A DNA stretch of 935 nt from a phage. Position 1 is the stretch's first letter. Each line of letters opens with the position of its first letter. Under the pieces are notes generated by a model, which made no database searches, was not told the DNA's origin, and saw nothing but the letters and a program-made list of their open reading frames with translations. Both the position numbers and the translations under genes were made by a program. Shown here one piece after another: positions 1 to 935 of the stretch. The DNA lies in the sequence record AB841354.1; one strand, written 5' to 3'.

Positions 1-752
1 TGACCGTAGTCGTAGCATCTGCCGGAATAGTTCGATTGAATTTGTTTTAGCGCCGGATACAGTTCGCGGAATAATGCCTGTGAGCGGTTGGCATAATCCC
101 ATAACCATACAAGGCTGTTTGCTTCTTTTGCAGAAAGCTCGTTTGCTTTCTTCTCTTGTTTGCCGATTAACTCGCCTTCAAGCACTACCCTGTGGATGTA
201 CTCTACGGCTTGCGGTATCTGAGATGCATCAAGCTCTTCAATACTTTCCACATTGAAACGCTGATGAATCATTGCATAAGCTTCTGGGTACATTAGATGC
301 TTTTTGCTGACTAGCATATTTACAGCATCACGAAGCGGAGTCCTGTCATCAACAGATGTTTTCTTACGTGCATTTCCTGCCTTTCCCTTTGTCCAGTAGT
401 CATGCAGTACAGTAAAGCATTCTTCCTGGTACTGAATCAGTTTATCGCGGATGTCAGCTCGAACTTTCTCAGGGTTGATGCTGAACAGCCATCCATTTAA
501 CTTCTTCAAAGGAAGGCAGAGTAGCTTACGAAGCTTCCCATCAGCGGCAACCATATTCATATGAATACAGTTGAACTTATCTAGTTGTTTCATAAGTTTT
601 TGTTGCTGAGTACCCCAACTCATTCCAAGGTTTTCAACGATTGGCTTCATCGCAACGTATGCAACTCCGGCAGCCATGGCGGTGATAATTTGCTGACCGT
701 TGAATGGTACGTAAGAGGTGTTCACTGCTTCTAAAATTGCTATACTATTCAT
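1..752 (-). CDS. Phage antirepressor-like protein (Ant-type), N-terminal 250 codons; 3' end of gene lies beyond the window start
   Basis: Seen in sequence: minus-strand frame is open from ATG (plus 752-750) through position 3 with no stop in 250 codons. The protein starts [105 protein letters not shown]... and is still open at ...[24 protein letters not shown] lies 10 nt upstream of the ATG, which is the first ATG after the in-frame stop at plus 831-833. Family assignment (P22 antirepressor N-terminal domain type, around the [18 protein letters not shown] segment) is from memory, not a search. Confidence is high for a real CDS, about 0.5 for the antirepressor function. Confidence 0.85.
738..746 (+). 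promoter_or_regulatory. Candidate extended -10 promoter (TGcTATACT) firing antisense to the antirepressor-like gene
   Basis: Seen in sequence: plus strand 738-746 is tgcTATACT, matching the extended -10 form TGnTATAAT at 5 of 6 hexamer positions plus the TG. There is no convincing -35 (gtgttc at 17-bp spacing), which extended -10 promoters can tolerate. Predicted start is near 753, immediately opposite the ant start codon. Sequence motif only; no expression evidence. Confidence 0.3.
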
Positions 753-762
753 GTTGGTTTTT

Positions 763-766
763 CTCC
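763..766 (-). promoter_or_regulatory. Shine-Dalgarno (GGAG) for the antirepressor-like CDS
   Basis: Seen in sequence: minus strand reads ccgtGGAGaaaaaccaacATG, with GGAG 10 nt upstream of the start codon at 752-750. The spacing is at the long end of the usual range. Confidence 0.55.
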
Positions 767-784
767 ACGGATTTACCGACAACC

Positions 785-825
785 GAAGCCCTGACTGTTC
801 CAGCAATTGGGGCTTCAACGTTTTT
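785..825 (+). terminator. Hairpin plus T-tract, candidate intrinsic terminator for a plus-strand antisense transcript
   Basis: Seen in sequence: gaagccc (785-791) and gggcttc (810-816) are perfect reverse complements, giving a 7-bp stem with 5 GC pairs and an 18-nt loop, followed by aacg then ttttt (821-825). It is non-canonical: the loop is large and a 4-nt spacer precedes the T-run. On the minus strand the same hairpin has no U-tract after it, so it is directional for the plus strand. Confidence 0.3.
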
Positions 826-935
826 CCACTTCATTTTGAATTTGCTTAAGTAGCATATTTGTCTCGTCAAGCCTCTTGTTAATACGGTCAAGGCTTTCTA
901 CTAAATCGTTATGTGCATGTAATACTTCGTAATTT
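815..935 (-). CDS. C-terminal 39 codons of a small upstream ORF, hypothetical protein; 5' end lies beyond the window end
   Basis: Seen in sequence: only one minus-strand frame is open from the window edge to a TGA stop (plus 817-815); the other two frames hit stops within about 10 codons. Translation is ...[38 protein letters not shown], helical and charged in character. It is co-oriented with the downstream gene and 62 bp from its start. No family recognised. A 39-codon open frame in AT-rich DNA has a non-trivial chance probability, hence the moderate confidence. Confidence 0.45.

Follow-up and report, generated by a model that had tools for sequence, protein, structure and literature searches.

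The question raised by this locus is what kind of phage region is represented by a stretch of DNA that carries an antirepressor-like gene, and by what means such a gene would be kept under control. The window (the whole stretch that was analyzed, 935 bases long and 42.9% G+C) almost certainly belongs to a P22-like (Lederbergvirus) element of Enterobacteriaceae, either a temperate phage or a prophage, and represents part of its immI (immunity I) region, or "ant moron", carried on the reverse strand and containing the first 250 codons of ant. The immI system has been under study since the 1970s. The region is composed of mnt, arc, sar and ant (PMC2629481). Work on P22 has established that the Ant protein inactivates the prophage repressor (Susskind and Botstein 1975, cited by PMC2629481 and PMC11016777). 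Its target is the C2 repressor, to which it binds; arc and ant are both repressed by Mnt, and the small RNA sar binds to ant mRNA (PMC11016777). The promoter Pant is repressed by Mnt in lysogens and is shut off by Arc during infection (PMC2629481, PMC11016777). The features assigned to the window are collected in Table 1.

Table 1. Features assigned to the 935-base window, with strand and basis of assignment
Feature	Position	Strand	Remarks	Basis
ant, antirepressor gene	3..752	-	first 250 of ~300 codons; 3' end past the left window edge	translation
P22_AR_N domain of Ant	378..713	-	aa 14-125	Pfam PF10547
P22_AR_C domain of Ant	6..155	-	aa 200-249	Pfam PF10548
Shine-Dalgarno GGAG of ant	763..766	-	10 nt 5' of the ATG, within the sar-covered region	direct sequence reading: CCGTGGAGAAAAACCAACATG
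sar, 68-nt cis-antisense RNA	753..820	+	directly upstream of ant, abutting its ATG, on the opposite strand	Rfam RF00262
Psar promoter, predicted	718..746	+	inside ant codons 3-12, reads away from ant	homology to P22/epsilon34
89-aa ORF (orf89), end	815..934	-	last 39 codons and TGA stop (817-815)	translation; phrog_27312
mosaic junction	~822..824			BLAST end points at reverse-complement positions 111-114; identity by 50-nt bins

The ant reading frame begins with an ATG at 752-750 of the minus strand and continues through 250 sense codons to base 3, past the left edge of the window, within a stop-free run of 276 codons. When the window was shuffled 2000 times, the longest run in any frame had a mean of 87 codons (sd 21) and never exceeded 198. 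A scan of stop-free runs in the window found none above 84 codons in any frame other than that of ant, and no ORF in the remaining frames, those of the plus strand included, is longer than 60 aa. The dN/dS ratio of ant is 0.13 in comparison with P22 and 0.08-0.21 with closer relatives, and it is therefore a protein-coding gene under purifying selection. The first-pass annotation, which placed a 250-codon ORF at 1-752, had the coordinates and the length right and left the strand (minus) unstated. Its statement that no more than the N-terminal portion can be seen is imprecise: about five-sixths of Ant can be read (250 of ~300 residues), from the complete P22_AR_N through the central region and on into P22_AR_C, of whose 73 model positions 50 are covered. 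The C-terminal end is indeed missing, as was noted, with the last ~50 codons of ant falling beyond the window.

As judged by profile searches and alignment, the product of this frame is a canonical P22-type antirepressor Ant, the identification that had been proposed at first sight of the sequence. The Pfam domain P22_AR_N was matched over model positions 2-114 of 115 with an E-value of 6.8e-45 (152.4 bits, cut-off 30.7), and P22_AR_C with 1.5e-19 (70.3 bits against a cut-off of 22.4), the latter match ending at model position 50 of 73 where it is cut by the window edge. The PHROGs family phrog_245, "anti-repressor Ant", was matched at 3.3e-80 across residues 1-250. The Ant of Salmonella phage P22 (AAF75059.1 in AF217253), a protein of 300 aa that has been characterized by experiment, aligns collinearly with the window protein and without a gap, 211 of the 250 residues being identical (84%, E 1e-166); the first 20 residues are the same in both proteins, and the 39 substitutions are concentrated in aa 40-80 of the N domain. 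The two share the P22_AR_N plus P22_AR_C architecture, as well as the arrangement of ribosome binding site and sar. Closer still is Ant of the E. coli ETEC1720 prophage (WP_196010866.1), which is identical at 246 of 250 positions (98%) and so differs by four amino acids, and many deposited sequences are 98-99% identical to the window protein.

The searches for other assignments returned little. The alternatives BRO-N, KilA-N and AntA that had been raised in the first-pass annotation, together with ANT, gave no Pfam match to the window Ant down to E = 1, and no unrelated family was matched. A Pfam ORF6C hit (E 0.056) fell below the cut-off and was rejected. Neither Ant nor the orf89 fragment matched a model of NCBIfam, and the PADLOC anti-phage defense models matched none of Ant, orf89 or a 73-aa ORF of phage vB_EcoP-611R6 at E-values up to 0.1. 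A sequence search of the PDB with Ant found no relative of solved structure (the best E-value, 0.66, is meaningless), and a single-sequence AlphaFold2 model of the 250-aa fragment (mean pLDDT 41, pTM 0.31) was unusable.

An element that bears on the setting of ant lies next to its start codon. The sar RNA was recognized by Rfam with 81.5 bits (gathering score 43, E 2.4e-17) over the full length of the model (1-68). It folds into two hairpins at -26.2 kcal/mol (z = -3.7 against shuffles), is followed directly by a run of T at 821-825, and is exactly complementary to the ant leader, the GGAG Shine-Dalgarno sequence included. It was found by Rfam at the same place in all six reference relatives, and the GenBank record of epsilon34 annotates both sar and Psar at the homologous positions. 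Since sar is characteristic of the P22 immI circuit, the immI reading holds on evidence inside the window. The suggestion that the window belongs to a secondary immunity (immI-type) region, made at first from the likeness of ant, thus gains independent support from sar beside the ant start and is borne out, sar and Psar themselves having been missed at that stage.

The window sar resembles that of P22 along its full length, with two hairpins, a cis-antisense relation to the ant leader, and Psar placed inside ant; it differs in the loop of hairpin II and in a 3' tail that reads GTTTTT, as opposed to TTTACG in the P22 type. A covariation count was limited to seven sar sequences, among which hairpin II is invariant and hairpin I falls out of register in the divergent KilA-N-type loci described below. 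At window position 777 there is a C where P22, epsilon34, ETEC1720 and 611R6 have T, which converts a G-U to a G-C pair in hairpin I of sar and alters the ant leader correspondingly; the two KilA-N-type loci are too diverged at this point to be compared. A match to the plasmid antisense RNA ctRNA_pGA1 at 757-830 on the plus strand, overlapping sar, was rejected at 24.8 bits against a gathering score of 45, and probably reflects the generic likeness of antisense RNAs built of hairpins and a U tail. Also rejected was a terminator-like hairpin with a T-rich tail on the plus strand inside ant (132-151), of which one was found in the window against 0.7 in shuffles.

The promoter for sar is a prediction by homology. 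The Psar stretch is identical to P22 at 28 of 29 bases and to epsilon34 at all 29, the epsilon34 annotation itself describing the stretch as "located by similarity with P22 Psar". It contains the extended -10 element TGcTATACT at 738-746, and TTTGCTA is invariant in all seven aligned loci. A scan of the window for the two-hexamer sigma-70 consensus reported no promoter, Psar included; identification by homology only is due to a poor -35 combined with the extended -10. From these likenesses, promoter function would be expected of Psar in the window as well.

How the circuit would operate in the source phage can be outlined from P22. Ant would bind the primary immC repressor C2 non-covalently and so stop it from acting at its operators, and if left uncontrolled would prevent lysogeny or break it. 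Control would be exerted at two levels. In the transcriptional layer, Mnt would repress Pant in lysogens, a role that would fall to Arc late in infection; the elements concerned, Arc-family mnt and arc and the divergent Pant and Pmnt, lie upstream, outside the 935-base window. In the translational layer, sar transcribed from Psar would pair with the ant leader, including the GGAG sequence, and ribosome loading would be blocked. With 84% identity to P22 Ant, the window protein may well bind and inactivate a cognate repressor of the C2/CI type, and sar-mediated repression of ant would be expected in the source phage.

The wider setting of the window was read from its relatives. Positions 1-823 are 95.8-98.4% identical in DNA to Lederbergvirus phages and prophages (Escherichia phage vB_EcoP-611R6, phiv205-1, Salmonella phage epsilon34, and prophages of E. 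coli ETEC) and 84% identical to P22. Over ant and sar, the DNA identity to ETEC1720, vB_EcoP-611R6 and epsilon34 gp18 is 96-98%, with a shared gene order. In the annotated relatives that order is ejection (DNA transfer) proteins, small accessory genes, mnt, arc, sar, ant and tailspike, and in E. coli prophages the tailspike gene is followed by an integrase beside tRNA-Arg. The neighbors mnt, arc, ant and tailspike were present in every relative inspected, genes for ejection proteins were seen upstream in each case in which the flanks had been annotated or profiled, and homologues of arc and mnt lie at most 1 kb upstream of ant in all 80 of the closest IMG/VR loci. Across the entire window, one IMG/VR locus (L025) shows 96.9% identity. 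It encodes mnt and arc, both of the Arc family, along with orf89, an Ant of 300 aa in which the two domains are complete, and a tailspike of the P22 type that carries a Head_binding domain. Among 5426 complete E. coli genomes, 173 match at least 80% of the window, and 1120 match some part of it, as do many Stx-converting phages. The phage regulatory or accessory context that the first reading of the sequence had supposed is thus recovered in the flanks of near-identical relatives, with their ejection proteins, mnt, arc, ant, tailspike and integrase. None of the outcomes that the first-pass annotation had named as refuting its reading was observed. On the strength of the same relatives, mnt, arc and Pant would be expected upstream, and a tailspike gene downstream, in the actual source.

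Three other explanations of the window deserve comment. The source might be a cryptic, decayed P22-like prophage, with an ant gene that is truncated or disrupted beyond the window, or that lacks a partner repressor, so that the circuit does not work. Such decay would be compatible with a view limited to 250 of ~300 ant codons, with the degraded ant and arc genes and rapid flux found in some P22-like prophages in the comparative study of epsilon34 (PMC2629481), and with the mosaic make-up of the window, whose exact junction did not turn up in scans of genome, viral and metagenome collections. We nevertheless regard it as quite improbable: the 250 visible codons are intact, collinear with P22 Ant, and marked by the low dN/dS values given above (0.08-0.21); sar, Psar and the ribosome binding site are all intact; and L025, the one relative with the same arrangement, possesses a 300-aa Ant within a complete mnt-arc-orf89-ant-tailspike block. 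It could also be proposed that the gene encodes an Ant-family ("Bro network") protein situated outside a true immI region, such as in the late or nin region of a Stx phage or in a satellite, where it would be subject to other regulation and possibly directed to another target. The P22_AR_N and P22_AR_C modules are widespread in phages and satellites (PMC10111431), and partial matches of the kind seen in many Stx-converting phages and in E. coli genomes (1120 of 5426) would agree with such a proposal. Against it stand the sar RNA abutting the start codon, with a score far over the Rfam gathering threshold; the fact that every inspected match covering at least 80% of the window was a Lederbergvirus or P22-like prophage with ant between arc and tailspike; and the arc and mnt homologues within 1 kb upstream in 80 of 80 of the closest IMG/VR loci. 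This proposal is already largely refuted and is highly improbable.

A chance ORF, or a real feature on the plus strand in place of ant, had nothing to recommend it beyond the strand left unstated in the first-pass annotation, and is refuted by the 276-codon run (shuffle mean 87, maximum 198), by the strong family matches, and, with respect to the plus strand, by ORFs of no more than 60 aa and by sar being the only feature there. The assignment to a P22-like immI region that is favored here is also a familiar one, in that on every testable feature the window is a correct but ordinary member of the P22 Ant family and of immI; the finding was already known in kind, and nothing in the window challenges current knowledge. 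Its value is for annotation. The window can be labeled with confidence as ant plus sar of the immI region of a P22-like prophage, and the label marks its source as a temperate element of the Lederbergvirus type in an enterobacterial genome.

Comparison of the window with two groups of relatives has revealed its composite structure. The APEC O2-211 prophage Ant (WP_032228630.1) and that of phage EC.P3 occupy the same immI position with a KilA-N plus P22_AR_C architecture, whereas the window has P22_AR_N. The C-terminal module is nevertheless common to these two and the window, with 100% identity over aa 191-250, and so are hairpin II of sar and the adjacent orf89. In the KilA-N-type loci (L003:6184-7074 and L004:6184-7062), the 5' half of sar and the -35 region of Psar diverge along with the swapped N-terminal coding sequence. 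P22_AR_N and P22_AR_C have been described as modules of a domain-swapping "Bro network" found in many phages and satellites (PMC10111431), and the exchange of KilA-N and P22_AR_N at immI is an instance of the domain swapping already described for that network (PMC10111431).

By identity along its length in a comparison with the loci L001-L006, window 786-935 is 98-100% identical to the APEC O2-211 type, 186-785 is ~100% identical to the ETEC1720/611R6 type, and 136-185 is again 100% identical to APEC O2-211 and only 92% to ETEC1720. Read from these segments, the window is a fine-scale recombinant of the ETEC1720/611R6 and APEC O2-211 types. To the left of 822-824 it is homologous to the canonical immI of P22, epsilon34 and ETEC; the sequence on the other side is particular to the orf89 cassette. 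Exact 82-nt and 65-nt patterns that span the orf89/sar/ant junction were found in none of the genome, viral and metagenome contig collections.

What occupies the right end of the window (815-935) is not arc but the terminal part of an 89-aa ORF, referred to here as orf89, which forms an insertion between arc and sar. The 3' end of sar covers the two final codons of orf89 and its stop. In P22, arc itself abuts sar; directly upstream in ETEC1720, 611R6 and epsilon34 there is either arc or a different ORF of 73 aa. The fragment matches positions 51-89 of 89 of phrog_27312, a PHROG of unknown function, at 3.1e-22. It is 97% identical to the L025 copy (3669-3938) and ~98% identical in DNA to those of APEC O2-211 and EC.P3. 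The full-length ORF, available in L025:3669-3938 and L003:5852-6121, has a 4-nt overlap with the stop of arc and finishes 62 nt ahead of ant. The complete protein, as read from the relatives, belongs to no Pfam family and has a hydrophobic helix at its N-terminus and a coiled-coil-like region toward its C-terminus, and is a probable membrane protein with a coiled coil. It is rare, having been found in 2 of 50,697 phage records and in 14 of 5,426 complete E. coli genomes. Given its place between arc on one side and sar/ant on the other, and its overlap with the arc stop, orf89 would share with ant a transcript made from Pant. One might go further and propose that orf89 is a new accessory factor, expressed early, in the circuit of secondary immunity, acting for example in superinfection exclusion or in modulation of Ant, and that the arc-sar junction may serve as a slot dedicated to cargo; we consider this speculative and rather unlikely.

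The arc-sar junction was also surveyed among related IMG/VR loci, by inspection of the ~300 nt upstream of ant in L007-L086 (ant being at locus position 4001). In 21 of these 80 loci the junction, which has the look of a cargo slot, contains one of six unrelated small ORFs, each ending exactly 62 nt before the ant ATG. Their sizes are 74 aa (6 loci), 67 aa (5 loci), 60 aa (4 loci), 73 aa (4 loci), 63 aa (1 locus) and 89 aa (1 locus). The "ant moron" has been described as a region in rapid flux (PMC2629481), and the recurrence of unrelated small ORFs at this one junction extends that view. The ORF types of 74, 67, 63 and 60 aa are rich in cysteine, and that of 60 aa, with the motif CSFCGK...CSGC, bears a likeness to the ClpX-type zinc finger.
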